A DNA stretch of 64,000 bases from a bacterium (lineage in GTDB: Bacteria > Auribacterota > UBA3054), in NCBI GenBank assembly GCA_017963805.1, contig JAGCTE010000035.1, positions 11,839 through 75,838 of the forward strand. Direction: 5' to 3'. Positions 11,654 through 55,646 of the stretch are shown piece after piece. The notes below the pieces were generated by a model. It was given only the letters and a program-made list of their open reading frames with translations. It was not told where the DNA came from and ran no database searches. The position numbers and the translations under genes were made by a program. The number at the start of each line of letters is the position of its first letter. Position 1 is the stretch's first letter.

Positions 11654-11677
11654 AAATCAAAAAAACAGGAGACGTCA

Positions 11678-34901: not shown

Positions 34902-37028
34902 ATGAAAAAACTCGGCCTTTTATTTCTGCTGATATTTTTTGCCAGTTTCAATTCCTACGCCCTGCGTATCTACGGCCTTTACATGGCCGAGGCGAACGTC
35001 AGGGACGACGGCAACCGTTACTACCAGGACACGATGTTCTCGACTTATCCTCCGAGCGCCGCGTTCAACGGCTGCGTGGACGTACTTGTCATGAAAGGCT
35101 GGTATTGTTTCGGCAACAACTGGGAATACGAACCCGTTGACAGCAACGTCCTCGACAAAGGACAGAAGGCCCAGTACGAAAACATGGGCAAGTGCGGCGG
35201 CGTAACGATAAAGAGGCTGGATCCCAACGTCTACGATCAGCTGAACGGCATGACGGGGCAAACTGCCGAAGCCGGCACTCCGGAAGGCTACATCGGCGCC
35301 GCCAACATGCGCCGCACCCTGCTCTTCAAAAACGCCGTCCTTGAAGAGGGGACGAACTACTTCACGATCGTCTGCCCCCAGGCCAACGAGCTGATGTACA
35401 GCGCCATGGTCGGCTTGTATCTTTCTGAAAAAGACACCTGGAGCACGGGCGTCATCCCGCCGGAAGGCACGGAGCCCGACCTTTGCGCCAAGGAAGCCGG
35501 CGCCGGCACCCAGGACATGGAAGGGGAGTACGTCTGCGGCGCTCCCAATCCCAGGAAGGACGTGTCGTATTTCAACCAGGCGAACATAAAGATGGAGCAC
35601 CCGACGCTCTACTGCGTGAAAGGCGATTACAGGATAAGCATTCCCTTCTTCTACATGGCCGGCACCAACGGCGACGAAGTGAATCCCGACGGCCTTACCT
35701 CGCCTCCGTCTCCCGGCTGGGTGGCGGAAGGCAGCCTTGATCCCGGCTGGGCGCTTGCCCACACCTCCGGAAACGAGGTCGCCTACCTTGCCGTAGTCGT
35801 CTCCAAAGAGAGCACGGTTCCTTCCCTTTCGACGCCTTCCGTCGTGATCCCGCCCCTGAGCTCCGACGGCTGCGTTCTTATGGAGAACCTCGGCGCCGGC
35901 AGTTTCAGCTACACCGCCAGCACCACGAGCAGCTGGCTCACGCTGGACAGCGAGACCGCTTCCGGCAGCGTCAGCATGCAGCAAAAGATCCAATTCACCG
36001 TCAACAGAAACGGCCTCGCTCCCGGCCGCTATGTCAGCACGATCGACATTGACCTCGGCAGTTTCGGAGTGATGACGGCCAAGGTGACGATGATCGTGGA
36101 GAAGCCCAAGACCGGCGCCGTGCGTTTGAAAGGATTGTACATTATGAGCAACGACGGCGAGACGCCCTATTACCAGGACACCATGATCAAGTCGCTGACG
36201 CCCTCTTACAATTTCGACGGCGGCTGCATGGATATCCTTCTCGCGAACGGGATCTACCTTTTCGGCAACGAGGCTGATTTCGAACTCTGCCCCTATTACG
36301 ATTACTTGGTCGCGAACGCGCTGGACCCCGGACGCCCCGCCGCCTATGACGAGGCCGGCAGCTTCCAGGTCACGAACGTTGTCTATTGCCTGCAGCCCGA
36401 GAGATACGACCTGATCAACCAGGCTGTCGACAACGGCGAGCATCCCACCGCCTCCTCGATCTCCGAATACGTGAAGTTTTCCGGCCTTACCAAAAAGGAG
36501 CTCGACTGCTACCTTAATGTTGGCACCAACCGTTTCACGCTCATTCTTCCGGAAGCCAGCGAATTCGAATCGGAAGAGATGCAGCTGGGCCTTTTCCTTG
36601 GAGAGAGGGTCGCGAGCGGCGCGAAACCCGATCTGGCGGCCAGCGACAGCGAGATACAGTTCGACGCCGAGGGCAAGCTTTACGCCACCTACACCACGGA
36701 AGACCGCACTTACAAATACCCCTTGAACGAATCGGATGTTTTCACCAGATCCACGCTTCAGTGCGACGTTGGCGACTATCATCTTACGCTTACGAAATTC
36801 TTCATCGCGGGCGTCAACAACGAATTCATGAATCCCAGGGGCATGACGAGCCCGGCTGCTCCCGGCTACGTCGCTTCTGGCGGCGACACGACCACGGCCT
36901 GGCCGGTGCACGCTTCGCCGAAGACGGCGCTGGGATATTTTGAAGTGGTGGTGACGGGCGTGCCGGAGCCGGCGGCGCTGGGGTTGCTGGCGCTTGTGGC
37001 GCTGGCGGCTTTCCTCCGCAGGAAGTAA
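34902..37028 (+). CDS. PEP-CTERM sorting-domain surface protein with internal duplication and a BACON-like beta domain
   Basis: ATG 34902. Signal peptide MKKLGLLFLLIFFASFNSYA. Two copies of a ~300-aa module (LRIYGLYMAE...YYQDTM... and VRLKGLYIMS...YYQDTM...). C-terminus VTGVPEPAALGLLALVALAAFLRRK is a canonical PEP-CTERM. Confidence 0.75.
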   Translation: MKKLGLLFLLIFFASFNSYALRIYGLYMAEANVRDDGNRYYQDTMFSTYPPSAAFNGCVDVLVMKGWYCFGNNWEYEPVDSNVLDKGQKAQYENMGKCGGVTIKRLDPNVYDQLNGMTGQTAEAGTPEGYIGAANMRRTLLFKNAVLEEGTNYFTIVCPQANELMYSAMVGLYLSEKDTWSTGVIPPEGTEPDLCAKEAGAGTQDMEGEYVCGAPNPRKDVSYFNQANIKMEHPTLYCVKGDYRISIPFFYMAGTNGDEVNPDGLTSPPSPGWVAEGSLDPGWALAHTSGNEVAYLAVVVSKESTVPSLSTPSVVIPPLSSDGCVLMENLGAGSFSYTASTTSSWLTLDSETASGSVSMQQKIQFTVNRNGLAPGRYVSTIDIDLGSFGVMTAKVTMIVEKPKTGAVRLKGLYIMSNDGETPYYQDTMIKSLTPSYNFDGGCMDILLANGIYLFGNEADFELCPYYDYLVANALDPGRPAAYDEAGSFQVTNVVYCLQPERYDLINQAVDNGEHPTASSISEYVKFSGLTKKELDCYLNVGTNRFTLILPEASEFESEEMQLGLFLGERVASGAKPDLAASDSEIQFDAEGKLYATYTTEDRTYKYPLNESDVFTRSTLQCDVGDYHLTLTKFFIAGVNNEFMNPRGMTSPAAPGYVASGGDTTTAWPVHASPKTALGYFEVVVTGVPEPAALGLLALVALAAFLRRK

Positions 37029-39239: not shown

Positions 39240-42200
39240 ATGAAACGAGTTTTCGGAAATACATCCGCCCCTAGGGGCGTGGCGCTTTTGATGGTACTGA
39301 CGGTCCTTACCGTCCTTTCGATCCTTTCCGCGACTTTCGCGACTTTCATCGGCTTGGAGAGCCAGTCCGGCGCCATAAGCGTCGGGCAGACGCAGTCGGA
39401 CATGCTCGCTCAGTCCGCCCTGCAGCACGCTTACGGCCTTCTCAGGGAAGACTATTACAATTCCTCGGCCTACGACGATTACAGCGAATCCTGGTCCCAG
39501 ACCTTCAAGCCCAAAAAAGGGGACCAGGCCGTCGATATGGACGGAACTTACGGCGACAAGACGCACATGTCGCGCTGGATCTACGTCAGGGACGCCAACG
39601 AAAGGATAATCGGCCGTTACGCCGTCATGGTCGAGGACGAGCTCGCGAAGATCAACGTCAACACCGCGACCGCCCTGAGCAGGAAAGAGCAGAACGAGGG
39701 CTTCGGCACTTTCGAAGTGATGCTGACCGGCGAGAACGGCAAAGCCGGCCTGCCGATCTCCCCCGAGGCTGGCAAGAACATTCTTTCCTACCGCTACGGC
39801 CGCGACCAGAAACCCGGCCAGGCGAACGTCGACGACAACCTGAACGCCTCCCAGTACTCTTCGGACGAGATAGACAACAACGCCAACCTTCTCGTGGACG
39901 AGAGGGACGAGGGCGTGGACGAGCCGGAGGAATACAACCCCGACCATCTGGTCTGGGACGACAAGGCTTTCCTTAACATGAGGGAAGTCATTTCGCTTAT
40001 CGCTCCCAACAAGCAGAACCTCAGCCGTTCTCTGGAGAACGCCATCAAGCACTACGCGACCATCACCTCCCGCTCCCAGGAAAGCTATTTCGACGAGACG
40101 TCCGGAAAGGTTTTCCGCCAGCTGAACATCAACAACTCCGACATGAAGCAGCTGAGAAGGGTGATGCGAAACTCCAATCTGGAATACAATTTCGAGAATT
40201 CTTCGACCGCCCTGCGCGAACTGGTCGTCAACATGGCGGACTACACCGACGAGAACCACGTTTTGTCCACCATCGAGAGCACGTACGGCATCGAGGCCGT
40301 CTGCTTCAACGAGATCATGGCGCATGACGGCAGCTGGATCGTGGAGACGGACCACCAGGGCTACGGCAGGAAAGACGAGAACAGCTACCACGTGATGTTC
40401 GCCAACCGCATTTACTCCGGCAACTGGGACTACGACCGCACGGAGTTCATCCCCGGCTCCATGCGCACATACTGGCGCATAAAGGATGTCAGGACGTCCG
40501 GGAACAGGGCGGAAATAAAACTTGACAATCCCATGTACACGAGCGGCGACTACAACACCTTCATGAAAGCGGAGGTCGACGGCTGGCTGAAGGACCAGTG
40601 GAAGAACGCCACGTGCATTATTCATCACGTGACAGGGCAAAGGTCCGCCGTGAGCAAGGGATTTGAGATCGAAGGCAACTCCGCCGGCAATTCCAAGAGC
40701 ATAACCATAAGGGTGTCGGGCGGTCTGGAATCATTTTTGGACGGCGTCAAGACCAACACCGCCAACGACAGGATAAGCATCTGGTCGCACTGGATGTGCT
40801 CAGCGGCTGTCTGGACCGACCGCAAGGAGCAGACGGGCCTTTTCTACACCAGGCCGAACACTCCGAAACAGGAAAAATTCTACTACCTCATCTACAGCGC
40901 CAACCAGGCTTTCAAAAACAACTGGTGCGGTTTCAAGCGCTCCGACCTGAGGGAAATGGACATGGACGGAATTCCTTCCAAGTATTCCGTCACGCAGGAG
41001 GACAAGGATAAACGCGGCAACTACCTGCTGCGCTACAAGTACAAGGACGGCAAGCCGCAGAAACCGAATCACAACGGCTTCCTTTCGCTTTATCTGACTT
41101 CTTCCAGAAGGTGCAAGAAGTCCGGCGCGAACCAGTCCGGCAAAAACGTCAACAGCAGCGACGCGCTCTACTTTTTCCGCCCCGACATCGTCGAGCTCAT
41201 CAACATCAGCTCCGCCCCGATCTCCTTGCGGAACTGGTCGGTCGTGGTCAACACCGGCGTGGAGTCGTACGACCTTGCGCGGATAGACAAGGCCGAGCAT
41301 TACAGCAAGGCTTACGGCGGCTATTACGACGATCCCAACCCCCTGATCGCCCCCGGCGGCTATTTCTACCTCACTTCCAACAAGCAGATCTTCGACATCG
41401 AATACTGCAAGGGAACGGGCGGCTACGGCCACAACAAGGAGAACGAGATCCCGGTCTTTGAGCTTCCCGCGGACGACTGGGGCATCCTGTACGACGTGAC
41501 AAAAGTTTCCGGCTACAACTACGGGCACAGCTACATTACCGTGACGGGCGCCGACTGGAAGAAGGACCAGCTTAAGGGCGAGATCATCGAGTTCGTCTCC
41601 ACGCGTCACCCCAGAGGCGGCTACGACGCGCCGAACGGCATGTTCAAATACGTTTACAACAACACTTCGCACGTCATCGACATCGGCGTGGGCGACGCTG
41701 TCAACAGCGGTTTGGAAGCCGGCGACCAGATCCGCGTGAGGGGCCTGCCGCGCCAGGGCGGTTTCGTCTCCTTCACCTTGAAGAACGAGTACGGCCAGAT
41801 CGCCGCCCGCACGACGGAATACGGCAGCCTTACCAAGGACGAGATCGGTTTCTCAACGGAAAAATCCGACCCGGCCCACTATATCTGGCACTCTGTGAGC
41901 GCCCCGACTTTCGGCGGCACAATAGACAAGGCCAAGAGCCGCGCTTTCAGGAAGCACAGCTTAACGCACATCAAGAACAACCATCTTGCCAACGTCGGCG
42001 AAGTTCTCAACGTAAGGACGGCCGACTCCTGGTCGACCGTCGGCACGAAAGGCCGCGGCGGCGTAAAGACCCTGAAGGCCTTGAGCAAATATTTCACCAC
42101 TTCCGGTATCCGCCTTGACAGCGAAGAGGAAGGCGTTCACCAGAGCGGCTGGAAAGCGGCTTTCGGCGAAGTGAGCCACGCCAACGGCGACAACATCAGC

Positions 42201-43232
42201 GTCAAGGAAGCCGCCTGGTCGCCGAACGCCTGGACGGGACAGACGATGCGCGTTCTCTCCGGACCTTTCAAGGGCGAGAAGATCCCGATCAAGTCCAACA
42301 CCGGCAACGGCGTTTTGGTGGAAGGGCTCTCGGCTCCCAACGAGAAGCAATTGAGGCTCAAGAAAGGCGACCTTATCAGCGTCGGCCCGGGATACGCGAC
42401 GGCCATGTACTACACCGACAAGGAAGGCGACGAGGGAATTTGGGAATGGGAGAACAAGGGGCTTCTGAAGAGCGACTACGGTCTCTACGTCTTCGGGCTC
42501 AACGACTCCATAAAGACCACCGAGTTCCTCGAGGAGAACCACAACGCCACAATAGAAGTTTACGCTTACAATTTCGCCAAAGGCGAATACGACAGGCTTC
42601 CTCTGCCGGACGACAGGATGCGCATCACAAGCGACAATCCCTACCTTATGGGCAGCCAGACCCAGCGCTTGCAGATCGACAAGAACGACAGAGTCTACTG
42701 CGGCCTGATCCACGCCGCGCACATTTCCCCGAGGGGCGGCATCCGCCTTAAGATCGTTCCCCACAACCTGAGAGGCCAGGAAACTTCCGGCAAAGCCTGG
42801 TTCGACTACGCTTTCCTCGCTCCCGGACAGACTAGCGGGAAAATAAACATCAACACCGCCACTCCGCGCGTTTTAGCCGCGCTTAAGGGCGTGACGCCGG
42901 CTATCGCGGCGGCCATCGAGAAAGGCTTAGACCGTTCCGGCAACAAGATCAAGCCCTACAAGAACACCGCGGACATCCTCGACATCCAGGGCATGACGCC
43001 GGCGATCTTCAGCGAGATCTCCAACCTTATCACCGTCAGGAGCGACCAGTACCGCATCAAGGTCATGGCCGATTCCGTTGAGAAAGTGACGAACGACCCG
43101 CAGTTCGACGAAGCGAAGGGCGACAAAGTCATCGCGCGTTCCATCATGGACGTCATCGTCGACAGAAGCGACCTGGCGCAAAGCGCGGAAGACAACGGCA
43201 AGGCCCAATTTAAGGTGATTTCCAAGGAATAG
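39240..43232 (+). CDS. giant GspK/T2SS-K-like pseudopilin-family protein (1330 aa), paralog of 30929..34882
   Basis: N-terminus APRGVALLMVLTVLTVLSILSATFA. DELAKINVNTA motif. C-terminal GKININTATPRVLAALKGVTPAIAAAIEKGL. About 60-65% identity to the first copy along the whole length. TTGTAAAAT -10-like upstream. Confidence 0.7.
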   Translation: MKRVFGNTSAPRGVALLMVLTVLTVLSILSATFATFIGLESQSGAISVGQTQSDMLAQSALQHAYGLLREDYYNSSAYDDYSESWSQTFKPKKGDQAVDMDGTYGDKTHMSRWIYVRDANERIIGRYAVMVEDELAKINVNTATALSRKEQNEGFGTFEVMLTGENGKAGLPISPEAGKNILSYRYGRDQKPGQANVDDNLNASQYSSDEIDNNANLLVDERDEGVDEPEEYNPDHLVWDDKAFLNMREVISLIAPNKQNLSRSLENAIKHYATITSRSQESYFDETSGKVFRQLNINNSDMKQLRRVMRNSNLEYNFENSSTALRELVVNMADYTDENHVLSTIESTYGIEAVCFNEIMAHDGSWIVETDHQGYGRKDENSYHVMFANRIYSGNWDYDRTEFIPGSMRTYWRIKDVRTSGNRAEIKLDNPMYTSGDYNTFMKAEVDGWLKDQWKNATCIIHHVTGQRSAVSKGFEIEGNSAGNSKSITIRVSGGLESFLDGVKTNTANDRISIWSHWMCSAAVWTDRKEQTGLFYTRPNTPKQEKFYYLIYSANQAFKNNWCGFKRSDLREMDMDGIPSKYSVTQEDKDKRGNYLLRYKYKDGKPQKPNHNGFLSLYLTSSRRCKKSGANQSGKNVNSSDALYFFRPDIVELINISSAPISLRNWSVVVNTGVESYDLARIDKAEHYSKAYGGYYDDPNPLIAPGGYFYLTSNKQIFDIEYCKGTGGYGHNKENEIPVFELPADDWGILYDVTKVSGYNYGHSYITVTGADWKKDQLKGEIIEFVSTRHPRGGYDAPNGMFKYVYNNTSHVIDIGVGDAVNSGLEAGDQIRVRGLPRQGGFVSFTLKNEYGQIAARTTEYGSLTKDEIGFSTEKSDPAHYIWHSVSAPTFGGTIDKAKSRAFRKHSLTHIKNNHLANVGEVLNVRTADSWSTVGTKGRGGVKTLKALSKYFTTSGIRLDSEEEGVHQSGWKAAFGEVSHANGDNISVKEAAWSPNAWTGQTMRVLSGPFKGEKIPIKSNTGNGVLVEGLSAPNEKQLRLKKGDLISVGPGYATAMYYTDKEGDEGIWEWENKGLLKSDYGLYVFGLNDSIKTTEFLEENHNATIEVYAYNFAKGEYDRLPLPDDRMRITSDNPYLMGSQTQRLQIDKNDRVYCGLIHAAHISPRGGIRLKIVPHNLRGQETSGKAWFDYAFLAPGQTSGKININTATPRVLAALKGVTPAIAAAIEKGLDRSGNKIKPYKNTADILDIQGMTPAIFSEISNLITVRSDQYRIKVMADSVEKVTNDPQFDEAKGDKVIARSIMDVIVDRSDLAQSAEDNGKAQFKVISKE

Positions 43233-45951: not shown

Positions 45952-47163
45952 ATGACGAAGCCTTTCAACGCTAAAAAAATAGCGGAAAACGTTTACTGGG
46001 TGGGCGCCATCGACTGGCAGCTCGCCGATTTTCACGGCTACAAAACGGAACGCGGCACGACCTACAACGCTTTCCTTATTCTGGGCGAAAAAATAACGTT
46101 GATAGACACCGTCAAAAGGCCCTACATGGAAGAGATGCTCTCCCGCATCTCTTCCATCGTGGACCCAACAAAGATCGACATAATCGTCTCCAACCACGCG
46201 GAGCTCGACCATACCGGCTGTCTTCCCGAAATGATAAAGCTTGCCGCCCCGGAAAAAGTCTACGCTTCCCCAATGGGCGTTAAAGCCATAGACGATCTTT
46301 TCCACGGCCAAGTCAAAGCCGAAGCGGTCATAGACAAGGGAACAATAGATCTCGGCGACTTTCATCTGACCTGCCTGGAAACAAGGATGATCCATTGGCC
46401 GGACTCAATGTTCAGCTATCTCAACGAAAGACAGCTGCTCTTCTCCCAGGACGCCTTCGGCATGCACCTCGCCACCGCGAAACTTTTCGCCGACGAGAAC
46501 TGCCCGGACCTTCTCAAAAGAGAATCCGACAAATACTTCGCCAACATCGTACTCCCTTACGCCAAAATGGTTGGCGCGACATTAACAAAATTCAAAGCTC
46601 TGAATCTTCCTGTCTCCATGATCGCTCCCGATCACGGCCCCATCTGGCGCACCCAGGAAGACATTCAGAAAGTCCTCTCCTGGTACGACAATTACGTCGC
46701 CCAGCCCTTCACTAAGAAGGTCGTCATCATCTACGACACCATGTGGGGCAGCACCCAACGCCTTGCCTCCGCCTTCGCGGAAGGCGTGGAAGCGGAAGGC
46801 TGCGTCCCCAGAGTCATCTGCCTAAAGAGCACCGACCGCTCCGAAGTCATGCGCGAACTTATGAACGCCGGCGCCTTGGCCGTAGGCTCCTGCACCATGA
46901 ACAACGGCATCTTCCCGACGGTGGCCGACTGCCTTACCTACATCAAAGGCCTGAAGCCCCAGAACATCCTTGGCGCCATCTTCGGCTCCTACGGTTGGAA
47001 CCTTCTGGCCTTCGAGGAACTGAAAGCCTACTTCGAGAAAGCCGGCATCCCCTTGGTTCTTCCCAACGTCCAGGCCAAGATGATCCCCGATGAGGAAAAA
47101 CTCCTCGAGGCTTATGAAAACGGCCGCGCCTTGGCCAAAGAGCTCTTAACCAAGATCAGCTGA
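45952..47163 (+). CDS. flavodiiron protein (FprA family: metallo-beta-lactamase + flavodoxin domains)
   Basis: N-terminal MBL fold with the HAELDHTG diiron motif. C-terminal flavodoxin-like domain (VIIYDTMWGSTQRLA). Confidence 0.85.
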   Translation: MTKPFNAKKIAENVYWVGAIDWQLADFHGYKTERGTTYNAFLILGEKITLIDTVKRPYMEEMLSRISSIVDPTKIDIIVSNHAELDHTGCLPEMIKLAAPEKVYASPMGVKAIDDLFHGQVKAEAVIDKGTIDLGDFHLTCLETRMIHWPDSMFSYLNERQLLFSQDAFGMHLATAKLFADENCPDLLKRESDKYFANIVLPYAKMVGATLTKFKALNLPVSMIAPDHGPIWRTQEDIQKVLSWYDNYVAQPFTKKVVIIYDTMWGSTQRLASAFAEGVEAEGCVPRVICLKSTDRSEVMRELMNAGALAVGSCTMNNGIFPTVADCLTYIKGLKPQNILGAIFGSYGWNLLAFEELKAYFEKAGIPLVLPNVQAKMIPDEEKLLEAYENGRALAKELLTKIS

Positions 47164-47813
47164 TGGAAGATCTTCTCCCCAAGATCATATTTTTCCTCAT
47201 ACTGCTCTTCAACATCTCCTGGCACGAGAGCGCCCACGCCCTCGTCGCCCACTGGTGCGGCGACGACACCGCCAAGAACCTTGGCCGTATCTCCTTGAGC
47301 CCCATCCCTCACATCGACATCTGGGGCACTCTCATAATTCCTCTCATCAACATTTTCACTCCCGGCGCTTTCGCTCTTGTAGGCTGGGGCAAGCCCGTAC
47401 CCGTCAATCCCTACAACCTCAAAAACCCGAGAAGGGACGACGTTCTTGTAGCGTTGGCCGGGCCTTTTTCCAACCTCGTATTGGCGGTCGCGGTGCTCTT
47501 GATCGTCAGGCTGCTCCCGTTGATACCCGAGCAGCAGGGCAGCATCTTCTTCCAATACCTTATTTTCCCCATGGCGGCCATGAGCATGATGCTCTGCCTT
47601 TTCAACCTTCTTCCCATACCGCCGCTGGACGGCTCGCACCTCCTCTTCAGCTTCCTCCCGCAAAGCCTCAGGCAGTACTACGGCAAAATAAGCCTCATAA
47701 GCTTCATCCTGATGATCGTCCTCATTAACACGCCTGTCTGGCGTTACTTCGGAATGATCATCCAGAAAATTATCTTATTTGGCCTCCGCACCATAAGTGG
47801 CGTAAACTTCTAA
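47163..47813 (+). CDS. M50-family (site-2 protease-like) membrane zinc metalloprotease
   Basis: HESAHALVAH (HExxH) within a TM helix, plus further TM helices. The stop/start overlaps the upstream gene (TGATG). Confidence 0.7.
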   Translation: MEDLLPKIIFFLILLFNISWHESAHALVAHWCGDDTAKNLGRISLSPIPHIDIWGTLIIPLINIFTPGAFALVGWGKPVPVNPYNLKNPRRDDVLVALAGPFSNLVLAVAVLLIVRLLPLIPEQQGSIFFQYLIFPMAAMSMMLCLFNLLPIPPLDGSHLLFSFLPQSLRQYYGKISLISFILMIVLINTPVWRYFGMIIQKIILFGLRTISGVNF

Positions 47814-47938
47814 ATTTACTTAAATAAAACATTATTGCCTTTATTTTCGGAACCCTTTTTGGTAGAATCCCCTCTACCTAAAATGAAATATTGTCCCTAC
47901 GGGACAAACAAAACCAACAACAACCAAAAGGGTAAAAA

Positions 47939-49579
47939 ATGAAAAAAGGATTGATCTTTATGGCGCTCTGCCTCTGCTTGGCCGCCGTAACGTCTTTTTC
48001 CGCCACCGTCTGGACCAGCGACGTCGCCTTCGACGGCACGCCGACCTCTGACACAGTAGTTCTTAAACCCACCGACAACATCGGCTACAGCACCGCTCTT
48101 GTCGGCGGTGAGTGGAAATGCGTGACTATCAAAGTTAACGATGTGACGGATCCTACCGTTCAAATACCTAATAGCGGTACCATTTTTCAAACTCCTAACG
48201 AAAATGTAGAATTTGAAGGCTCTTTTACCTGGAACTACATTTCCTTGAATCTTCCCAAAACTGACACTTACAAGATAGAGGAGACAGCAGAATCTACTTC
48301 AGATTATAATATAACCTCTCGCTATTTCACCATTGTCCCCGAACCTACGGTATTGCTTTTTGCTGGTATCCTCGGCGTGTTCTTCCTCCGCCGCCGCGCG
48401 AAAGCCCTTCTGGCGGTCCTAGCCGCGGTTGCCCTTTGCTCCTTCAGCGCTAATGCCACGACCACGGTCTCTTCGGTTAACTGCTTACAACTTTTCCCAG
48501 TCCATAGAGAAGTAGTCATCAATTACACCATTACCACCGACTATGAAGGCGACCTCAACATCAAGTTCTACGGCAGCACGGACAAGGGCGCCACGACCTT
48601 TGATCTGGCCGACAAGGGCACTCTGACAAAGGACGGCGCCAGCGGTAAGATCACTACCGGCTCCGGCACCTACAAGACCATCTGGACGCCCGATTCCACG
48701 CTGAACAACGTTACCGGCACCATCAGGATCGGTGTGGAAGCGGAAGAGTACGTTCCTCCCAAGACCTACATGGTCCTTGATGTGGATCACAACACGGTGA
48801 CTTATCTCGACGATCCTCCCTCCGGCGGTTTCAACAACAATACCTACAAAGGCACCAAGATGGCTTTCAGGTACGTTGAGCCCGGCACCTTCACTATGGG
48901 CAGCCCGAACAATGAATTAGGACATAAATCTGACGAGACCCAACATTCAGTTACCTTGACCAAGGGCTTTTATATCGGCATCTTTGAAGTCACGGAATAT
49001 CAGTACGACCAGGTGAATTACAGTCCTTTAAGCATGTACAAGCCGAAAATAAACGTAGGTTATTCCGATATTCGTGGTTCCAGCGCCGGGGCGGGCTGGC
49101 CCGCCAGCAGTGCTGTGGACAGCGGTTCTTACCTTGGAAAGCTGCGTGCCGCTACCGGACTTAATTTCGACTTGCCCACGGAAGCCCAGTGGGAGTACGC
49201 CTGCCGCGCCAACACTACCACGGCTCTCAACAGTGGAAAGAATCTGTCTAGCCAGTGGGATGATTGCCCTGAAATGGACGAAGTCGGATGTTATGACGGC
49301 AATTATATGTCGCTTGTGGAAGGCGGCCGCTTTAATGCCAATGCTTGGGGAATATATGACATGCACGGCAACGCTATTGAACACTGCCTTGACTGGTACT
49401 CCGCGGATCTTGGCAGCGCGGCGGTGACCGATCCCAAAGGCCCCAGCGCGGGAAGCGTAAGAGTGGTGAGAGGCGGCGGCGCCCAAAGAGACGCGTGGTA
49501 CTGCCGTTCGGCCTGCCGCCAGGGGAACGCTCAAACCAACCAGGAATACGGCTTCCGCATTGTTCTGGTGGTCGAATGA
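47939..49579 (+). CDS. fusion protein: N-terminal secreted domain with internal PEP-CTERM motif, second signal-like helix, C-terminal FGE/SUMF1-fold domain
   Basis: Signal peptide. VPEPTVLLFAGILGVFFLRRRAK at residues ~133-156 is directly followed by ALLAVLAAVALCSFSANA. The FGE-fold hallmarks are GTFTMGSP, LPTEAQWEYACRA, RVVRGGG...YCRSACRQG and GFRIVLV. A TGGTAGAAT -10-like element lies upstream. Confidence 0.75.
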   Translation: MKKGLIFMALCLCLAAVTSFSATVWTSDVAFDGTPTSDTVVLKPTDNIGYSTALVGGEWKCVTIKVNDVTDPTVQIPNSGTIFQTPNENVEFEGSFTWNYISLNLPKTDTYKIEETAESTSDYNITSRYFTIVPEPTVLLFAGILGVFFLRRRAKALLAVLAAVALCSFSANATTTVSSVNCLQLFPVHREVVINYTITTDYEGDLNIKFYGSTDKGATTFDLADKGTLTKDGASGKITTGSGTYKTIWTPDSTLNNVTGTIRIGVEAEEYVPPKTYMVLDVDHNTVTYLDDPPSGGFNNNTYKGTKMAFRYVEPGTFTMGSPNNELGHKSDETQHSVTLTKGFYIGIFEVTEYQYDQVNYSPLSMYKPKINVGYSDIRGSSAGAGWPASSAVDSGSYLGKLRAATGLNFDLPTEAQWEYACRANTTTALNSGKNLSSQWDDCPEMDEVGCYDGNYMSLVEGGRFNANAWGIYDMHGNAIEHCLDWYSADLGSAAVTDPKGPSAGSVRVVRGGGAQRDAWYCRSACRQGNAQTNQEYGFRIVLVVE

Positions 49580-49610
49580 TTTGAATAATAATTCATAAGG
49601 AGATAAGAAA

Positions 49611-51302
49611 ATGTTAAAAAGCAAGTACCTTCTGGCTTTAAGCCTCTGTTTCGCCGCGGCGGCGCTTTTCGCCGGCGAGGCTGAACTCTGGTCCGGCTCT
49701 TTTACTTTCAAGGGCCAAGAGATCAATCAAGAAGAACCGCTTCTGCTCAAGACGAGCGACAAGATCGCTTACTCCAGCATTCTGGCTAAAGGCGATCCTG
49801 AGGCTCTCAAGATCGATGTGGTGGACGTCAACGATCCTTCCATTAACGTGACGCTTTTCAACAACACCAGCGGCAGGGCCGTGGAAGGCTCCTTCGTTTG
49901 GGATTACACCCAGCCGCAGTTCGACGACTTCAACCAGTTCAGCAGCTACGTTATCACCGAAACGGTGACCGCCAGCCAGGAGACCAAAGCTTATCCGCGC
50001 ACGATCAACCTCGTTCCGGAACCGGCCGTGCTGATCCTCATCGGCATCGTCGGTGCTTTCTTCCTGCGCCGCCGCGCCAAGGCTCTGCTCGCTGTTCTGG
50101 CTCTGGCCGCGCTCTGCGCCTCTAACGCCTCCGCTTTCTGCTATGTCACGAAAGTCGACTGCCTGCAGCTCTTCCCGTTCTCCAGGACCGTCGTCATCAA
50201 CTACACGGTCGAGTCCGACAGCACGGAAATTTTCAACGTCAAGTTCTACGGCTCCACCGATGACGGCGAGACGGTCTTCGACCTGTCTGAGAAAGGAACG
50301 CTTGCCAACGACGGCGCCAAAGGCTTACTCATTAGCGCCGGCGACCACAAGACGCTCTGGACTCCCGACGAGAGCTTCTATGAGACCGATACCGATAACA
50401 TGAAGGTTAAGGTCAAGATAGAGGAAAGAGACGGAATGCCTTATTACGTCTATGATCTTGAGACCGGAGAATACACTTACGTCGACAAGGATCCTTCCGG
50501 TGAATGGTCCGACGAATACAAGACCACCAAGATGGTCTTCGCCTACGTCCCGGCCGGTTCCTTCACCATGGGCAGCCCTGCCGGTGAAATTGGTCGTCAG
50601 GCTAACCAGGAAATCCAGCACACCGTCACCATCACCAAGCCTTTCTTCATGGGCGTGTTCGAAGTGACGCAGAAGCAGTACGAGCTTATTGCCGGCTCCA
50701 ACCCCTCTGAGAGCAAGGGCGACAATCGTCCCGTTGAGCAGGTTTCTTACGACATGATCCGCGGTTCTGTGAAGGGCGCACAGTGGCCCGCTAACAACGA
50801 AGTGGACGAAGATTCCTTCCTTGGCAAACTCCGTGCTCAGACCGGCAAAGTTTACGATCTGCCCACGGAAGCCCAGTGGGAGTACGCCTGCCGCGCTACT
50901 ACGGGAACGGCGCTCAACACCGGCAAGGATCTTACCGACGAGTGCCAGTGCCCCAATATGGATGAAGCTGGCCGCTATGCTTGGGACACGAACGATGGCA
51001 AGGGCGATATCTATTATCGTAAGCACACCGTCGTTGGCTGTTATCTGCCCAACCAGTGGGGCCTCTACGACTGCCACGGCAACGTCGCTGAGATCTGCCT
51101 TGACTGGGCCTATACCAGGTCGAGCGCTGATCCGCAGGTCGACCCTGTCGGTCCCGCCACGGGCACCACGCGTATGATTCGCGGCGGCGGCAACATCGAT
51201 GACGCCGAGTACTGCCGTTCCGCTACCCGCGGATCGAGTGTTTGGCCTACCACCGCCAACTACAACGTCGGCTTCCGTCTGGTCGTTCCCTTCGAAGACT
51301 AA
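49611..51302 (+). CDS. paralog of 47939..49579 (internal PEP-CTERM + FGE/SUMF1-fold domain)
   Basis: Same architecture: LVPEPAVLILIGIVGAFFLRRRAKALLAVLALAALCASNASA, GSFTMGSP, LPTEAQWEYACRA, MIRGGG...YCRSATRG, GFRLVV. Confidence 0.75.
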   Translation: MLKSKYLLALSLCFAAAALFAGEAELWSGSFTFKGQEINQEEPLLLKTSDKIAYSSILAKGDPEALKIDVVDVNDPSINVTLFNNTSGRAVEGSFVWDYTQPQFDDFNQFSSYVITETVTASQETKAYPRTINLVPEPAVLILIGIVGAFFLRRRAKALLAVLALAALCASNASAFCYVTKVDCLQLFPFSRTVVINYTVESDSTEIFNVKFYGSTDDGETVFDLSEKGTLANDGAKGLLISAGDHKTLWTPDESFYETDTDNMKVKVKIEERDGMPYYVYDLETGEYTYVDKDPSGEWSDEYKTTKMVFAYVPAGSFTMGSPAGEIGRQANQEIQHTVTITKPFFMGVFEVTQKQYELIAGSNPSESKGDNRPVEQVSYDMIRGSVKGAQWPANNEVDEDSFLGKLRAQTGKVYDLPTEAQWEYACRATTGTALNTGKDLTDECQCPNMDEAGRYAWDTNDGKGDIYYRKHTVVGCYLPNQWGLYDCHGNVAEICLDWAYTRSSADPQVDPVGPATGTTRMIRGGGNIDDAEYCRSATRGSSVWPTTANYNVGFRLVVPFED

Positions 51303-51326
51303 GACATAAGGAACCATCGCTGAAAA

Positions 51327-51361
51327 GACGGCCGACCGCTTTTGCGGCCGGCCTTTTTTTG
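51327..51361 (+). terminator. GC-rich hairpin terminator (family member 1)
   Basis: gacggccgaccgc-tttt-gcggccggcc followed by a T7 run. Confidence 0.65.
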
Positions 51362-51403
51362 TTAAAATATAAGCGTATCATTACAATCCACCCAGGGAAA
51401 GAT

Positions 51404-52249
51404 ATGAGAAAGTTTGTAGTTTTTGCGCTTTTCGCGGCGCTGTCGGTTTGTGGTATGCTTTTCGCGGACAATGATCTTAGCGAAAACGGTTCGGTCGTAA
51501 TAAAAAAGGACACGCTCGTCTATAAGGGAAAAGCCTTGAAGCCCGCCGTGAAAGTTTATTGCGGTGGGAACAAGCCTCTGAAGCAAAAGAAGGAGTATAC
51601 GCTTTCCTTTGAAAACAACGATCAGATCGGGACAGCCAGAGCGGTGGCGACCGGCGCGGGGAAATATAGCGGCCAGGCGGTTGGGGAATTCACGATCAAT
51701 CCGGGCCCGGTGAAAATAAAGAAACTTAAAAGCATCGAGTCGGGATTCGAGGCTAGTTGGAAGCCCTCCTCGGGCGTAGACGGCTATGAGCTTCTTTACA
51801 CCGCTCCCGACGAGTCCCAGTCCGGCAGCCTTTTGGTGGCAGGCGAGCAGTCCTCAAGCGTCCAGGTCACGAGGCTCGTGCCGAACACGACCTATCAGGT
51901 GTGTCTGCGCTCCTACAAGAAAGTGGACGGCAAGAATTATTACTCCGCCTGGAGCAAGGCCAAGAAATTTACCGTGGCGAAAAGCAAGGATCCTGACGAC
52001 GGTGGTGACGACGATATTGATGACGGGCCGGCTTTCGCGGAAAAATACATGGTCGTCGACCTTGCCAGCGGGTCCAGCGATCCGGTCACGGATCCGGTAG
52101 GACCTGCCGAAGGTTATTTACGCATCCTTCGCGGCGGCAGCTACTATTTCTATCCGAAAGAAAGCCGCTCGGCTTACCGGAGCCGCTATAGCCGCACCGA
52201 CAACTACAACAACGACTCCGGCATCCGCGTAGTTCTGGTTTTGGGATAG
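51404..52249 (+). CDS. secreted Fn3-like protein with only the extreme C-terminal piece of an FGE/SUMF1 domain (internally deleted paralog)
   Basis: ATG 51404 (MRKFVVFALFAALSVCG). The YMVVDL motif is followed directly by SSDPVTDPVGPAEGYLRILRGGSYY...SGIRVVLV. Compared with the two upstream paralogs, about 200 aa of FGE core are missing. Confidence 0.65.
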   Translation: MRKFVVFALFAALSVCGMLFADNDLSENGSVVIKKDTLVYKGKALKPAVKVYCGGNKPLKQKKEYTLSFENNDQIGTARAVATGAGKYSGQAVGEFTINPGPVKIKKLKSIESGFEASWKPSSGVDGYELLYTAPDESQSGSLLVAGEQSSSVQVTRLVPNTTYQVCLRSYKKVDGKNYYSAWSKAKKFTVAKSKDPDDGGDDDIDDGPAFAEKYMVVDLASGSSDPVTDPVGPAEGYLRILRGGSYYFYPKESRSAYRSRYSRTDNYNNDSGIRVVLVLG

Positions 52250-52270
52250 AATTGGCTTCTGGCGATCCAA

Positions 52271-52310
52271 AGCGGCCGGCCGCGTTCCGCGGCCGGTCGC
52301 TTTGCTGTTT
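52271..52310 (+). terminator. GC-rich hairpin terminator (family member 2)
   Basis: gcggccggccgc-gttcc-gcggccggtcgc, then ttt. Confidence 0.55.
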
Positions 52311-52312
52311 AA

Positions 52313-52400
52313 GTCTTAAAAACGTGTAAATTTGGCCTTGTCTTACCTCTTAAAAACGTGTAAATTCAGCCATCTCTGACCTCTTAAAAACGTGCAAGAG
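52313..52400 (+). repeat. three direct repeats phased at exactly 34 bp (ctcttaaaaacgtgtaaatt core) upstream of a promoter
   Basis: Copies start at 52313 (gtcttaaaaacgtgtaaatt), 52347 (ctcttaaaaacgtgtaaatt) and 52381 (ctcttaaaaacgtgcaagag). Confidence 0.8.
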
Positions 52401-52402
52401 TA

Positions 52403-52431
52403 TTGACTTTTTAAGTTGTAAATACTACAAT
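52403..52431 (+). promoter_or_regulatory. sigma70-like promoter TTGACT-17-TACAAT driving the AAA ATPase gene
   Basis: ttgact at 52403-52408, a 17-nt spacer, tacaat at 52426-52431, RBS aggaga at 52443-52448, ATG at 52454. Confidence 0.55.
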
Positions 52432-52453
52432 AGTCGCAAAATAGGAGATAATT

Positions 52454-53797
52454 ATGCTTTTTAAGAGAAAGATCTATGAAAAACTCCTCGAATGGAAGCG
52501 CCGATCCAAAGGCAGAACCGCCCTTTTGATAGAGGGAGCCAGACGCGTTGGCAAGAGCACTATTGTTGAAGTATTCGGTAAAAACGAATACAAGTCTTAC
52601 GTTATCGTGGACTTCATGAAGCCGAACAAAAAAGTGCTTTCAGCCATCCTTGACCATCCTGACGATCTGAGCGTTTTTTTCAACGAGCTTTCCTTCGCCT
52701 ATAATGTCGTTTTGCACGAAAGAGAAACCTTGATCGTCTTCGACGAGGTGCAGCGCTGTCCTGAGGCCAGGCAACTATTGAAAGCGCTTGTGGGGGACGG
52801 ACGCTACGATTACGTAGAGACCGGTTCGCTTATTTCCATAAGGATGAACGTGAAGGATATCACCATCCCGTCGGAGGAAGAAGCCATCGGAATGTATCCG
52901 ATGGACTTTGAGGAATACTTGTGGGCGATAGGTGACAAGGTCACTTTTCCCGCCATCAAAAAGGCTTTCGAGGAAAGACGTCCTATGGGAAGAAGTTTCC
53001 ATGAAACGGCTATGCACCGCTTCCGGGAATATCTTCTGGTAGGCGGCATGCCGCAAGCTGTCGATAAGTTTATCGAGACGCGAAATCTTGGCGAAGTTGA
53101 CATGGTGAAAAGATCTATTCTCAGACTATACCACAACGATATTGCCAAATACGCCGGAAAAGACGCCGCGAAGGTCAGGCGAGTTTTTGATGGCATTCCC
53201 GGTCAGCTTTCCAAAAAGGAAAAGAAATATTCCTTGGCTTCTTTGGACAAAGAGGCCAGATACAGGAATTACGAGGAAGCCTTTCTTTGGCTCGACGAGG
53301 CGAAAGTCGCTAACATAGCGTACAACGCCACTGATCCCAGCGTCGCTCTTTCCCTGAACGAGGACGACTCAACTTTAAAAGTCTATCTTCTGGACACCGG
53401 ACTGATGATCTCGCAGACGCTGGGAGACCGCCCGTACACGGAGAGCAGCATCTACAGCGAAGTTTATTCCGGAGACCTTTACATAAACGAGGGAATGATC
53501 ATGGAGAATTACATCGCGCAGGCTTTTTCCTGCAGCGAGAGAAAGCTCTTCTTCTATTCCCGCTACGACCTTAGCAGCGCCGAAAACAGAATGGAGATCG
53601 ATTTCCTGATCCGCCGCGGAGACAAGATATGCCCTGTGGAGGTAAAAAGTGGAAATTACCGTTCACACTTGTCTCTTGATAAATTCAAGAAAAAATTCAA
53701 GAAGCGCATCGGAGAAACATTCATTCTTTACACCAAAGACGTCATGCTAAAGGACGACATAATCCATTTGCCATTGTATATGGCTATGTTTTTGTAA
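52454..53797 (+). CDS. COG1373-type AAA+ ATPase (AAA_14 + DUF4143-like)
   Basis: Walker A GARRVGKST, Walker B LIVFDEV, and a C-terminal DUF4143-like region. Confidence 0.78.
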   Translation: MLFKRKIYEKLLEWKRRSKGRTALLIEGARRVGKSTIVEVFGKNEYKSYVIVDFMKPNKKVLSAILDHPDDLSVFFNELSFAYNVVLHERETLIVFDEVQRCPEARQLLKALVGDGRYDYVETGSLISIRMNVKDITIPSEEEAIGMYPMDFEEYLWAIGDKVTFPAIKKAFEERRPMGRSFHETAMHRFREYLLVGGMPQAVDKFIETRNLGEVDMVKRSILRLYHNDIAKYAGKDAAKVRRVFDGIPGQLSKKEKKYSLASLDKEARYRNYEEAFLWLDEAKVANIAYNATDPSVALSLNEDDSTLKVYLLDTGLMISQTLGDRPYTESSIYSEVYSGDLYINEGMIMENYIAQAFSCSERKLFFYSRYDLSSAENRMEIDFLIRRGDKICPVEVKSGNYRSHLSLDKFKKKFKKRIGETFILYTKDVMLKDDIIHLPLYMAMFL

Positions 53798-53810
53798 AGA
53801 ACGATCGTAA

Positions 53811-54134
53811 TATTGCAAATTCAACCAGGGAGCCGGCCGAGGCGGTTACAGCGAGGGGCACACCGCGGTTGGTTTTTATATTCCGAATTCCTGGGGCCTC
53901 TACGACATGCACGGCAACGTTTGGGAGATGTGTCTGGATTGGTGGGGGGACCCCGGAAGCTATACCAGCGATCCGGTCACGGATCCGGTGGGCGCCGCCG
54001 AAGGTACCAGCCGCCATATGCGCGGCGGTTCACAAGCCAACCCTGCGGGCGAATGCCGATCGGCGTACCGAGCCGGCAACGGCCCGAATGACCGCTATGA
54101 ATTCGTCGGCTTCCGCGTAGTTCTGGTCCCTTAA
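53811..54134 (+). pseudogene. 3' remnant of an FGE/SUMF1-fold paralog (no start; about 105 C-terminal residues)
   Basis: The frame opens at 53811 and reads NQGAGRGGYSEGHTAVGFYIPNSWGLYDMHGNVWEMCLDWW...SDPVTDPVGAAEG...ECRSAYRAG...GFRVVLVP. This aligns with the C-termini of the 47939 and 49611 proteins. The 24-nt string agcgatccggtcacggatccggt is shared with 52085-52108. Confidence 0.65.
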
Positions 54135-54162
54135 AGCGAAGTTGAGCGTTGAGCGCATTGAA

Positions 54163-54200
54163 AGCGACCGGCCGTTTCCGCGGCCGGTCGTTTGTTTTTA
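54163..54200 (+). terminator. GC-rich hairpin terminator (family member 3)
   Basis: cgaccggccg-tttcc-gcggccggtcg, then tttgttttt. Confidence 0.65.
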
Positions 54201-54232
54201 TTACCCATGTGTGATATAATACCCATGGGTAA
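54201..54232 (+). promoter_or_regulatory. perfect 9-bp inverted repeat (TTACCCATG-N14-CATGGGTAA) enclosing an extended -10 (TGATATAAT): putative operator/promoter of the downstream HTH gene
   Basis: ttacccatg at 54201-54209 and catgggtaa at 54224-54232, with tgatataat at 54212-54220 between them; 25 nt upstream of ATG 54258. Confidence 0.55.
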
Positions 54233-54257
54233 TAAATAATACACGGTGGGTGAAAAC

Positions 54258-55646
54258 ATGAAAAAGACTGTTGAGATCATAAATGAGCTTAGGGCCTACG
54301 AAAGTGAGCGCGAATGGTTCGAGTTCAAACTGAATTGGTCTAACGCCAAGGAGATTGGGGAATACATATCCGCCCTCGCCAACAGCGCCGCCTACGAGGG
54401 ATGCAAAAACGGCTATCTAGTTTGGGGAATAAACAATAAGACGTATGGAGTGGAGGGAACGACTTTTAACCCGAACAGTGAGGTCAAAGGTGAACCATTG
54501 AAGCATTTTTTGGCCAGACAATTGTATCCGGAAAATAATTTCAATTTCGACGAAACTGTTATCGACGGCAAGCGCGTTGTTCTGCTGACGATCCCCGCGG
54601 CCAAAATCTCTCCCTTAAGTTTCAACGATGAGAGATTCATACGCATTGGCTCGAGCAAAGAGAAGATCAGGAAGTATCCTGAAAAAGTATCCTTCTTGTT
54701 TCAAATTCTCAGAACGGGATTCCCGACAATGGAGAACACGCCCTCAGATTTCCAGGACCTGACATTCGAGAAACTGTTCATGTATTACGGTGCGAAGGGA
54801 CTTCCTTTAAATCGGACAACTTTCAAGCGTAATCTTGGTTTGCTGACGGAAGACGGCAAGTACAATATTCTGGCGCAGCTTTTGTCAGACGATTCCCATA
54901 TGTCTATAAGGGTGGCGCTTTTCTCGGGCAAGACGAAAGCGGACATGATGTTCGCGGTTAGGGAATTCGGCAATCAGTGCTTGCTTTACACTCTGGACGA
55001 CATTCTTCGTTACGGAGACGTTCTGAACGTTATGCAGGCGGACGAAAGGGACCGCGTGGTGGAGAGAAAGGAAGTGCCTTTGTTCGAGAGCGATGCTTTT
55101 CGCGAGGCGGTCATAAACGCGTTCGTGCACAACGCCTGGGTTACGAAGAACGAGCCTATGATCACGGTCTTTTCCGACAGGATAGAGATACTCTCAAGAG
55201 GTACGCTCGCGCCTGAACAGACAATGGAAGGATTTTATTCCGGGGTATCCGTCCCGGTAAACAAAAAGCTATCCGATCTCTTCTTGCAGCTACATATAAG
55301 CGAGCGGACAGGCAGAGGCGTTCCCACGATCGTCAAAGCCTACGGCAAGAAAGCCTATGAATTCCTGGAGAACGCCATAGTGGTGAAGATCCCCTTCAAT
55401 TGGATCAACGTGATGGGGGAGAGATCCGGGAGCAAAAACAAGCAGAAACCACTGTCCAAGACGCAGCAAAAGATCCTGACGCTGATAAAGGAAAATCCCA
55501 GCATCACCAAGGCTTTGGTTGCGGAAGCCCTTTACCTCGGAAAGACCACCGTGGACAACGGTTTCTCTGTTCTGAAGGACAGCGGCTACATCGAGAGAGT
55601 TGGCTCGAGGAAAAAAGGCTACTATAAGATCCTGAAAGATGATTGA
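54258..55646 (+). CDS. COG2865-type protein: AlbA_2/Schlafen-like DNA-binding domain + HATPase_c_4-like + C-terminal winged HTH
   Basis: N-terminal EFKLNW...IGEYISALANSAAYEGCKNGYLVWGI (AlbA_2 signature). C-terminal KTQQKILTLIKENPSITKALVAEALYLGKTTVDNGFSVLKDSGYIERVG (wHTH). The start could instead be GTG 54246. Confidence 0.75.
   Translation: MKKTVEIINELRAYESEREWFEFKLNWSNAKEIGEYISALANSAAYEGCKNGYLVWGINNKTYGVEGTTFNPNSEVKGEPLKHFLARQLYPENNFNFDETVIDGKRVVLLTIPAAKISPLSFNDERFIRIGSSKEKIRKYPEKVSFLFQILRTGFPTMENTPSDFQDLTFEKLFMYYGAKGLPLNRTTFKRNLGLLTEDGKYNILAQLLSDDSHMSIRVALFSGKTKADMMFAVREFGNQCLLYTLDDILRYGDVLNVMQADERDRVVERKEVPLFESDAFREAVINAFVHNAWVTKNEPMITVFSDRIEILSRGTLAPEQTMEGFYSGVSVPVNKKLSDLFLQLHISERTGRGVPTIVKAYGKKAYEFLENAIVVKIPFNWINVMGERSGSKNKQKPLSKTQQKILTLIKENPSITKALVAEALYLGKTTVDNGFSVLKDSGYIERVGSRKKGYYKILKDD

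Follow-up and report, generated by a model that had tools for sequence, protein, structure and literature searches.

An internal PEP-CTERM signal abutting a second signal peptide in tandem fusions of a PEP-CTERM protein and an FGE-fold protein

Two tandem genes, W1 and W2, lie on the forward strand of a 64-kb stretch (the window, meaning the whole stretch of DNA analysed) of contig JAGCTE010000035.1, from an uncultured gut bacterium of the Auribacterota. Each is a single open reading frame (ORF) that joins a small exported module carrying a PEP-CTERM sorting signal, without a stop codon, to a second signal-peptide-like segment and a domain with the fold of formylglycine-generating enzyme (FGE). 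Comparison with relatives in which the two halves are separate adjacent genes shows, at the level of sequence, that W1 and W2 are in-frame fusions of a conserved gene pair. Our favoured reading, held with roughly even confidence, is that the product would be a secretory polyprotein: the hairpin made by the two hydrophobic segments would be cut by signal peptidase I (SPase I) after a conserved A-x-A, and the N-terminal module would be processed by exosortase.

We took W1 as the ORF 47939-49579 and W2 as the ORF 49611-51302, and called signal peptides by inspection of their n-, h- and c-regions. As can be seen from ORF analysis of the window, both are open without interruption from ATG to stop on the same strand, which confirms the in-frame passage from the PEP-CTERM into a signal-peptide-like segment described in an earlier note on this DNA. 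The parts of the two genes (aa, amino acids; Ig, immunoglobulin) are as follows.

47939..49579, + strand: W1 fused gene, 546 aa; signal peptide, N-module, PEP-CTERM, second signal, Ig-like domain, FGE fold
47939..48004, + strand: W1 N-terminal signal peptide MKKGLIFMALCLCLAAVTSFSA, called by inspection
48005..48334, + strand: W1 N-module, a beta-sandwich of about 110 aa
48335..48403, + strand: W1 internal PEP-CTERM VPEPTVLLFAGILGVFFLRRRAK, composed of VPEP, TVLLFAGILGVFFL and RRRAK; residues 133-155; TIGR02595 13.7 bits
48389..48457, + strand: W1 second signal-peptide-like segment RRRAKALLAVLAAVALCSFSANA, composed of RRRAK, ALLAVLAAVALCSF and SANA; residues 151-173
48458..48757, + strand: W1 Ig-like beta-sandwich, starting TTTVSSVNCLQLFPVHREVVINYT
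48875..49564, + strand: W1 FGE-sulfatase-fold domain (PF03781); residues 313-542; Cys336-equivalent is Arg
49611..51302, + strand: W2 fused gene, 563 aa, laid out as W1
49611..49673, + strand: W2 N-terminal signal peptide MLKSKYLLALSLCFAAAALFA, called by inspection
49674..50012, + strand: W2 N-module beta-sandwich
50013..50081, + strand: W2 internal PEP-CTERM VPEPAVLILIGIVGAFFLRRRAK, composed of VPEP, AVLILIGIVGAFFL and RRRAK; residues 135-157; TIGR02595 22.3 bits
50067..50135, + strand: W2 second signal-peptide-like segment RRRAKALLAVLALAALCASNASA, composed of RRRAK, ALLAVLALAALCAS and NASA; residues 153-175
50136..50435, + strand: W2 Ig-like beta-sandwich; strands at residues 177-272 in a structural model
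50544..51284, + strand: W2 FGE-sulfatase-fold domain (PF03781); residues 312-558; Cys336-equivalent is Asp

Gene callers elsewhere place the W1 start 7 codons downstream, giving a protein of 539 aa. W2 begins 31 nt from the W1 stop, with AGGAG 9 nt ahead of its ATG; a promoter and terminator scan of 47700-52500 returned nothing usable. The N-terminal segments of both proteins show typical n-, h- and c-regions. In both, the basic cluster of the PEP-CTERM, RRRAK, is at the same time the n-region of the second signal, and the SPase I site predicted from inspection and conservation lies after ANA at residue 173 in W1 and after ASA (A175) in W2.

LPXTG, PEP-CTERM, PGF-CTERM and GlyGly-CTERM are C-terminal sorting signals, defined by their terminal position. 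In W1 and W2, 391 and 406 residues, respectively, lie C-terminal to RRRAK, so the PEP-CTERM is not at the extreme C-terminus; the second signal segment, being internal, lacks the N-terminal position of a Sec signal peptide. The earlier note had called an internal PEP-CTERM in both proteins. Position and elements stood, but the score did so for W2 only: in the TIGR02595 search that it had proposed (cut-off 16 bits), W2 reached 22.3 bits, whereas W1, in which all three elements are visible by eye, fell short at 13.7 bits. The internal motif of W2 even outscores the genuine terminal one of another window protein:

34902..37028, + strand: ordinary PEP-CTERM protein, ending in VPEPAALGLLALVALAAFLRRK directly before its stop codon; TIGR02595 19.4 bits

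This protein shows that the normal C-terminal placement is in use by the organism.

We searched a profile of the N-module and PEP-CTERM exhaustively against 1.84 billion representative proteins, and retrieved 74. (A word-index search with the N-terminal 160 aa was uninformative, as it returned one truncated protein only and missed the 97%-identical P0001.) About 22 clusters of matches are of the fused type, and in about 25 clusters the PEP-CTERM is truly C-terminal, its basic cluster standing 0-10 residues from the end of the protein. Unfused N-modules occur as stand-alone proteins of about 155 aa, in tandem-module proteins and at the C-terminal end of the subtilase P0179; judged from these homologues, the N-module is a normal pre-anchor domain.

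Five related loci have the halves as two distinct genes side by side, with a spacer of 22-28 nt:

P0157 / L033: unfused pair
P0175 / L036: unfused pair
P0145 / L039: unfused pair
P0168 / L041: unfused pair, on 15 contigs
P0167 / L044: unfused pair

In all five, the PEP-CTERM of the first gene is an ordinary C-terminal one, and a stop codon follows. The second starts with ATG and a normal signal peptide, followed by A-L-A or F-A, D/N and ...Q(R/H)WPW(N/D)GKVDI..., and runs into the FGE-sulfatase domain where the contig allows; its signal peptide sits at the position of the internal second helix of the fused proteins. W2 residues 27-155 align with the stand-alone P0157 through the last residue of P0157, and W2 residues 159-559 align with the adjacent gene (L033:1343-2557) from residue 6 of its signal peptide. 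This collinearity with adjacent gene pairs identifies the window proteins as in-frame fusions of a conserved bicistronic cassette. As judged by the same comparison, gene A of the cassette is a signal peptide, N-module and C-terminal PEP-CTERM, and gene B is a signal peptide, Ig-like domain and FGE-fold domain. W1 and W2 lack the stop codon, the spacer of 22-28 nt and the start codon of the relatives, and their short R/K-rich loop is, by alignment, the basic cluster of the PEP-CTERM merged with the n-region of the downstream signal. One ORF thus holds two units that elsewhere are independent proteins with predicted export. A survey of relatives for the same fusion, which the earlier note had called for, gave 93 fused proteins as well as the five unfused pairs. 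A sixth, more distant stand-alone N-module gene, P0177, has no FGE gene partner. Conversely, P0041/L027 is an unfused gene for a signal peptide, an Ig-like domain and two FGE domains; it has its own terminator and promoter region upstream, and its ATG is located where the second helix lies in the fused proteins.

A crude neighbour-joining tree of the modules, built without support values, has one large fused clade, and nested among the unfused genes are three fused singletons, which could be errors. There may thus have been more than one fusion event, which fits the idea that such fusions are tolerated. The N-modules and Ig domains (RQRWPWNGKV type) of the fused P0156, P0163 and P0170 group with the unfused pairs and not with the main fused clade, and in P0163 the basic cluster is still followed immediately by an in-frame Met (..GIRK-MRAGVAVV..). 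These features point to three independent, more recent fusions, each a single cluster seen at the protein level only. Outside the family, P0187 (L028 703-2070, GCA_964524565.1) is an unrelated PEP-CTERM protein that is apparently duplicated in frame. Its first copy ends AVPEP...RRRKKK, from where a spacer leads to a second signal-like segment (...VAAQSASA, then L); the second copy has a terminal PEP-CTERM, and TIGR02595 matches twice. Although it is on a single contig, where an error is possible, P0187 hints at an independent internal PEP-CTERM plus signal and at a general tolerance of such fusions. As to the N-module, a Peptidase_S8 gene for about 798 aa (L041 5757-8153) directly follows an unfused N-module/FGE pair, and P0179, likewise a 798-aa subtilase, ends in an N-module and terminal PEP-CTERM. 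To go by these homologues, proteins of this lineage seem to use the N-module more generally as the domain before the anchor.

It could be argued that two ordinary adjacent genes were joined by a missed stop codon or frameshift, given that relatives have unfused two-gene versions and that one frameshifted fragment, P0132, is in the database. However, exactly the same 563-aa protein as W2 recurs on 8 contigs that were assembled independently, from at least three samples, with the same neighbours in three places among the matches listed. The junction is present in 70 of the best 120 homologues; when all retrieved proteins are pooled, the 93 fused proteins have 83 distinct junction sequences, and the PEP is kept in every one (93/93). 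Tandem arrays of 2-4 fused paralogues occur in several related genomes, and some family members carry two FGE domains (840-980 aa). Between W1 and W2 the 41-residue junction is 71% identical in protein and 64% in nucleotide sequence, and 21 of its 29 identical residues are encoded by different codons. It is the best-conserved part of the two proteins, as the N-module is only 29% and the FGE part (the remainder) 48% identical. Such a pattern, read from the codons, is that of purifying selection and not of recent copying. The artefact reading is effectively refuted, and we give it next to no weight; the earlier note, which had described the junction as conserved in protein, diverged in DNA and not a sequencing artefact, was right on each count.

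We then calculated position frequencies from 61 ungapped junctions. Arg at +17 is found in 100% and Lys at +21 in 92%; Ala is found at -3 in 74% and at -1 in 79%, while the -2 position is highly variable. A175 (W2 numbering) is conserved in at least 90% of alignment A1. The first hydrophobic helix (TM1) has a median length of 14 aa, whether the PEP-CTERM is fused or terminal. Past the basic loop, the stretch of uncharged residues, with the c-region counted in, reaches a median of 16 aa, a length that is, on sequence criteria, signal-peptide-like and not anchor-like. Short h-regions favour cleavage by signal peptidase, and long ones yield signal anchors (PMC2120157). The second segment has the features of a cleavable Sec signal: an RRRAK or RKRxK loop, a short h-region and an in-register A-x-A. 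A Tat signal was considered and rejected: most family members carry RKRxK in place of the RRR seen in W1 and W2, and an S/T-RRxFLK context is lacking.

The favoured route would be as follows. The precursor would be exported by Sec, the first signal would be removed and the N-module would cross the inner membrane, until the 14-aa PEP-CTERM helix acted as a stop-transfer segment and left the RRRAK loop in the cytoplasm. The second hydrophobic segment would then restart translocation of the C-terminal ~390 residues. The resulting hairpin with its positive cytoplasmic loop would put both flanking domains outside the inner membrane, as when they are made separately. SPase I would cut after the conserved A-x-A (A173 in W1, A175 in W2), freeing the Ig-FGE-fold protein into the periplasm, and the N-module would stay on its PEP-CTERM anchor for exosortase processing. 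The outcome would be two mature proteins in a 1:1 ratio from one ORF, the same products as those of the unfused cassette.

The same topology would also hold if the two helices stayed in the inner membrane for good, with the N-module beside the Ig-FGE part in the periplasm and no cuts made. A fusion of this kind would keep together two proteins which relatives co-express; long-tailed PEP-CTERMs are possibly non-functional (Haft et al. 2006, PMC1569441), and the cleavage is itself something that we infer. Several observations nevertheless favour cleavage over a permanent anchor. Neither hydrophobic stretch is long (14 and about 13-16 residues), TM1 has the length found in terminal PEP-CTERMs, and short h-regions favour SPase cleavage (PMC2120157). 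The PEP in 93/93 and the conserved, in-register -3/-1 Ala of the second signal persist across proteins that are about 40-50% identical, where a mere anchor would need neither the PEP nor the -1 Ala. In addition, the halves are separate and separately exported proteins in unfused relatives. We therefore prefer SPase I release followed by exosortase processing, and consider the uncleaved anchor unlikely. The two outcomes posed by the earlier note, cleavage into two polypeptides and a double membrane anchor, are both still live, with the new evidence favouring the former.

Alternatively, processing may stop halfway: SPase I would free the Ig-FGE part, but the PEP-CTERM would be no substrate for exosortase, and the N-module would remain on an inner-membrane hairpin remnant. 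The tail of this remnant would be far longer than in typical PEP-CTERM proteins. To our knowledge exosortase biochemistry is almost untested, and we know of no experimental data on the tolerance of exosortases to C-terminal extensions. On the other hand, the PEP is invariant in the fused proteins, TM1 length and the basic cluster match those of terminal PEP-CTERMs, and the W2 motif scores above the genuine terminal one of the window. We think half-processing improbable.

A number of points count against full processing by SPase I and exosortase. Its steps are ones that we infer. In 87% of PEP-CTERM domains the protein goes on for fewer than 10 residues, according to Haft et al. (2006, PMC1569441), who describe long-tailed ones as 'very few' and possibly non-functional. 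The N-fragment left by the SPase cut would carry about 18 hydrophobic residues past the basic cluster. The main uncertainty lies here: exosortase may refuse such a tail, or may act before SPase. The W1 motif is below the TIGR02595 cut-off, and Pfam scans found no exosortase gene among the larger ORFs of the window. In an AlphaFold2 (AF2) model of W2, built from a 34-sequence alignment (mean predicted local distance difference test score, pLDDT, 78), confidence drops below 50 across residues 138-175. Finally, the -3/-1 rule is easily satisfied by chance in Ala-rich segments, and the argument for cleavage consequently rests on the positional conservation of the motif and not on its mere presence.

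We also considered internal initiation, in which the FGE part would be made also, or only, from a start codon just before the second signal, so that two genes would overlap. The singleton fusion P0163 has its in-frame Met directly after the basic cluster, and GTG and TTG codons are scattered within TM1. However, 17 gene copies have no start codon at a conserved position, and several have none between the PEP and the loop. The only Shine-Dalgarno-like matches are GGAG before a TTG six codons past the PEP motif, in 5 copies; they overlap or adjoin the P-E-P codons, and neither W1 nor W2 has one. We regard internal initiation as very improbable.

After the junction come a beta-sandwich of about 100 aa, a linker and an FGE-fold domain of about 250 aa. 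The earlier note's FGE/SUMF1 domain of about 390 aa was thus correct as to the fold but not as to a single domain of that size, since the stretch comprises the Ig-like domain, the linker and the FGE fold. The PF03781 search that it had suggested gave E values of 7e-28 for W1 and 2e-32 for W2. The AF2 model has a beta-sandwich at residues 23-135, a second at 177-272 and the FGE fold at 301-560, and the best structural matches in Foldseek are Treponema denticola TvpA (2y3c) and PvdO (5hha), ahead of FGE (E about 1e-11).

The paired catalytic cysteines of FGE are missing, as the earlier note had stated: when W1 and W2 are aligned by HMMER with the human and Streptomyces enzymes, they prove to keep the Cys341-equivalent alone. 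The Cys336 position holds Arg in W1 and Asp in W2, and the second Cys of CRSAC in W1 aligns with a non-catalytic Ala. A genuine FGE is rejected by the incomplete Cys pair. PvdO and GldK are likewise rejected, as scores are far under the equivalog cut-offs (75-94 bits against 500 for PvdO, NF051459; 53-65 bits against 350 for PorK/GldK, TIGR03525). As in TvpA, PvdO and PorK/GldK, proteins of the PF03781 fold without FGE activity, the Cu-binding Cys pair is absent here. Judged from its residues and relatives, the FGE-fold part is most likely a non-catalytic, lectin-like binding module. As in those proteins too, its C-terminal loops are variable and paralogue-specific; here, unlike there, an Ig-like domain precedes the fold, together with, uniquely, the N-module and PEP-CTERM. 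The TvpA match, strong as a structural resemblance, prompted us to consider a variable protein diversified by a diversity-generating retroelement (DGR). Pfam scans of the larger window ORFs found no reverse transcriptase (RVT domain), and a whole-window repeat scan found no template repeat of the gene 3' ends; we rejected this candidate, there being no DGR evidence in the window. Annotation pipelines name the family only "FGE family / SUMF1-EgtB-PvdO nonheme iron enzyme", a name that takes no account of the sorting signals and probably errs on catalysis.

The array continues downstream of W2 with two further features:

51404..52249, + strand: third gene of the array, with signal peptide, Fn3 and FGE, and an internal deletion or mosaic structure
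53858..54134, + strand: C-terminal remnant of a further fused-type paralogue, an FGE fragment of about 90 aa

The third gene has lost the FGE core; a close relative, L003, has an intact version of about 496 aa (7795-9285). Its junction is mosaic-like, with 'GSSDPVTDPVGPAEGYLR' resembling the fourth gene of L003 and the tail resembling the third. The remnant stands directly after an AAA_14/DUF4143 gene, where L003 has a complete 555-aa fused-type paralogue (10887-12554), which suggests decay or recombination of the array in the lineage of the window. Ahead of the AAA_14/DUF4143 ATPase gene (52454-53797) lies a 34-bp tandem repeat (2.4 copies, 52314-52394), and a Schlafen/AlbA_2 plus HATPase_c_4 gene is found at 54246-55646. 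The GC content of 52314-55646 is 0.49 against about 0.57 elsewhere, and this segment may be a small islet inserted within the paralogue array. AAA_14/DUF4143 and AbiEii genes also adjoin the unfused pair in L041/L042.

Upstream, 125 nt before W1 and on the same strand, is a 216-aa membrane peptidase gene of the M50 / site-2-protease family (47163-47813), which at its start overlaps with the stop of the ODP/flavodoxin gene before it. Site-2 proteases clear signal-peptide remnants in Escherichia coli. An extra gene separates the M50 gene from the W1 orthologue in L003, so the adjacency is probably coincidental. Two paralogues of about 1320 aa (30929-34882 and 39240-43232; HHH_3 motif and a faint LTD) lie on either side of the ordinary PEP-CTERM protein and ilvD; they have blocks in common, 8.3 kb apart, with a nucleotide identity of 71-81%. 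A further ORF, 27805-29007, holds three tandem STAS-domain repeats (families D3, D8 and D18; period about 405-423 nt). LpxD and LpxA are encoded in the window, which indicates a diderm organism. The best named relatives of the window IlvD (about 70% identity) are in Kiritimatiellota/Verrucomicrobiota, and the closest genomes to the window are ruminant-gut metagenome-assembled genomes.

Compared with known PEP-CTERM/exosortase sorting (TIGR02595, PF07589), the window proteins have the same PEP, helix of about 14 residues and basic cluster, along with an N-terminal signal peptide called by inspection. They differ in that the sorting signal lies 135-160 residues from the N-terminus with about 390-410 residues following, and in that the basic cluster continues directly into another signal-peptide-like segment. 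Moreover, a large family has conserved the signal in this internal place, in contrast to the few long-tailed cases of Haft et al. 2006 (PMC1569441). We found no description of a conserved internal exosortase signal abutting a second signal peptide in the searchable literature.

The closest analogy is with secretory polyproteins. The glycoprotein precursors of flaviviruses, alphaviruses and bunyaviruses are secretory polyproteins cut at internal signal peptides, and the cytochrome b/c1 precursor FbcH of Bradyrhizobium japonicum (Thony-Meyer et al.) is reportedly a bacterial polyprotein cut at an internal signal. The likeness is in the order of parts, a stop-transfer helix leading through a short loop in the cytoplasm to an internal signal that has a signal-peptidase site, and in the two exported products that one ORF would yield at a fixed stoichiometry. 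The differences are that processing here is proposed from the signals themselves, that the helix ahead of the loop doubles as a sorting signal for another membrane protease, exosortase, and that both halves are soluble exported domains and not subunits of a membrane complex. W1 and W2 also resemble Rosetta-stone fusions, as their parts are adjacent, separately translated genes in relatives and one ORF here; however, both partners are exported, so that the fusion must keep two sorting signals back to back and cannot simply join two cytoplasmic domains.

The pieces are thus known (PEP-CTERM, Sec signal, FGE fold, fusion of operon genes, polyprotein logic), and the combination is new. More tentatively, and with somewhat less than even confidence, we propose that the internal exosortase signal is functional, that these are natural polyproteins cut by SPase I at A-x-A and by exosortase at the PEP, and that the N-module PEP-CTERM protein and the lectin-like FGE-fold protein form a hitherto unrecognised two-component surface system, whose obligatory partnership would be revealed by repeated fusion. 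The family would offer a natural substrate with which to ask whether exosortase requires a free, short C-terminal tail, and a rare bacterial case of a polyprotein logic best known from enveloped viruses. Being one ORF here and adjacent genes in relatives, the two halves are probably linked in function in the Rosetta-stone sense, which would tie a family of small PEP-CTERM proteins to the very abundant, functionally obscure FGE-fold proteins of bacteria of the Planctomycetes-Verrucomicrobia-Chlamydiae (PVC) group.

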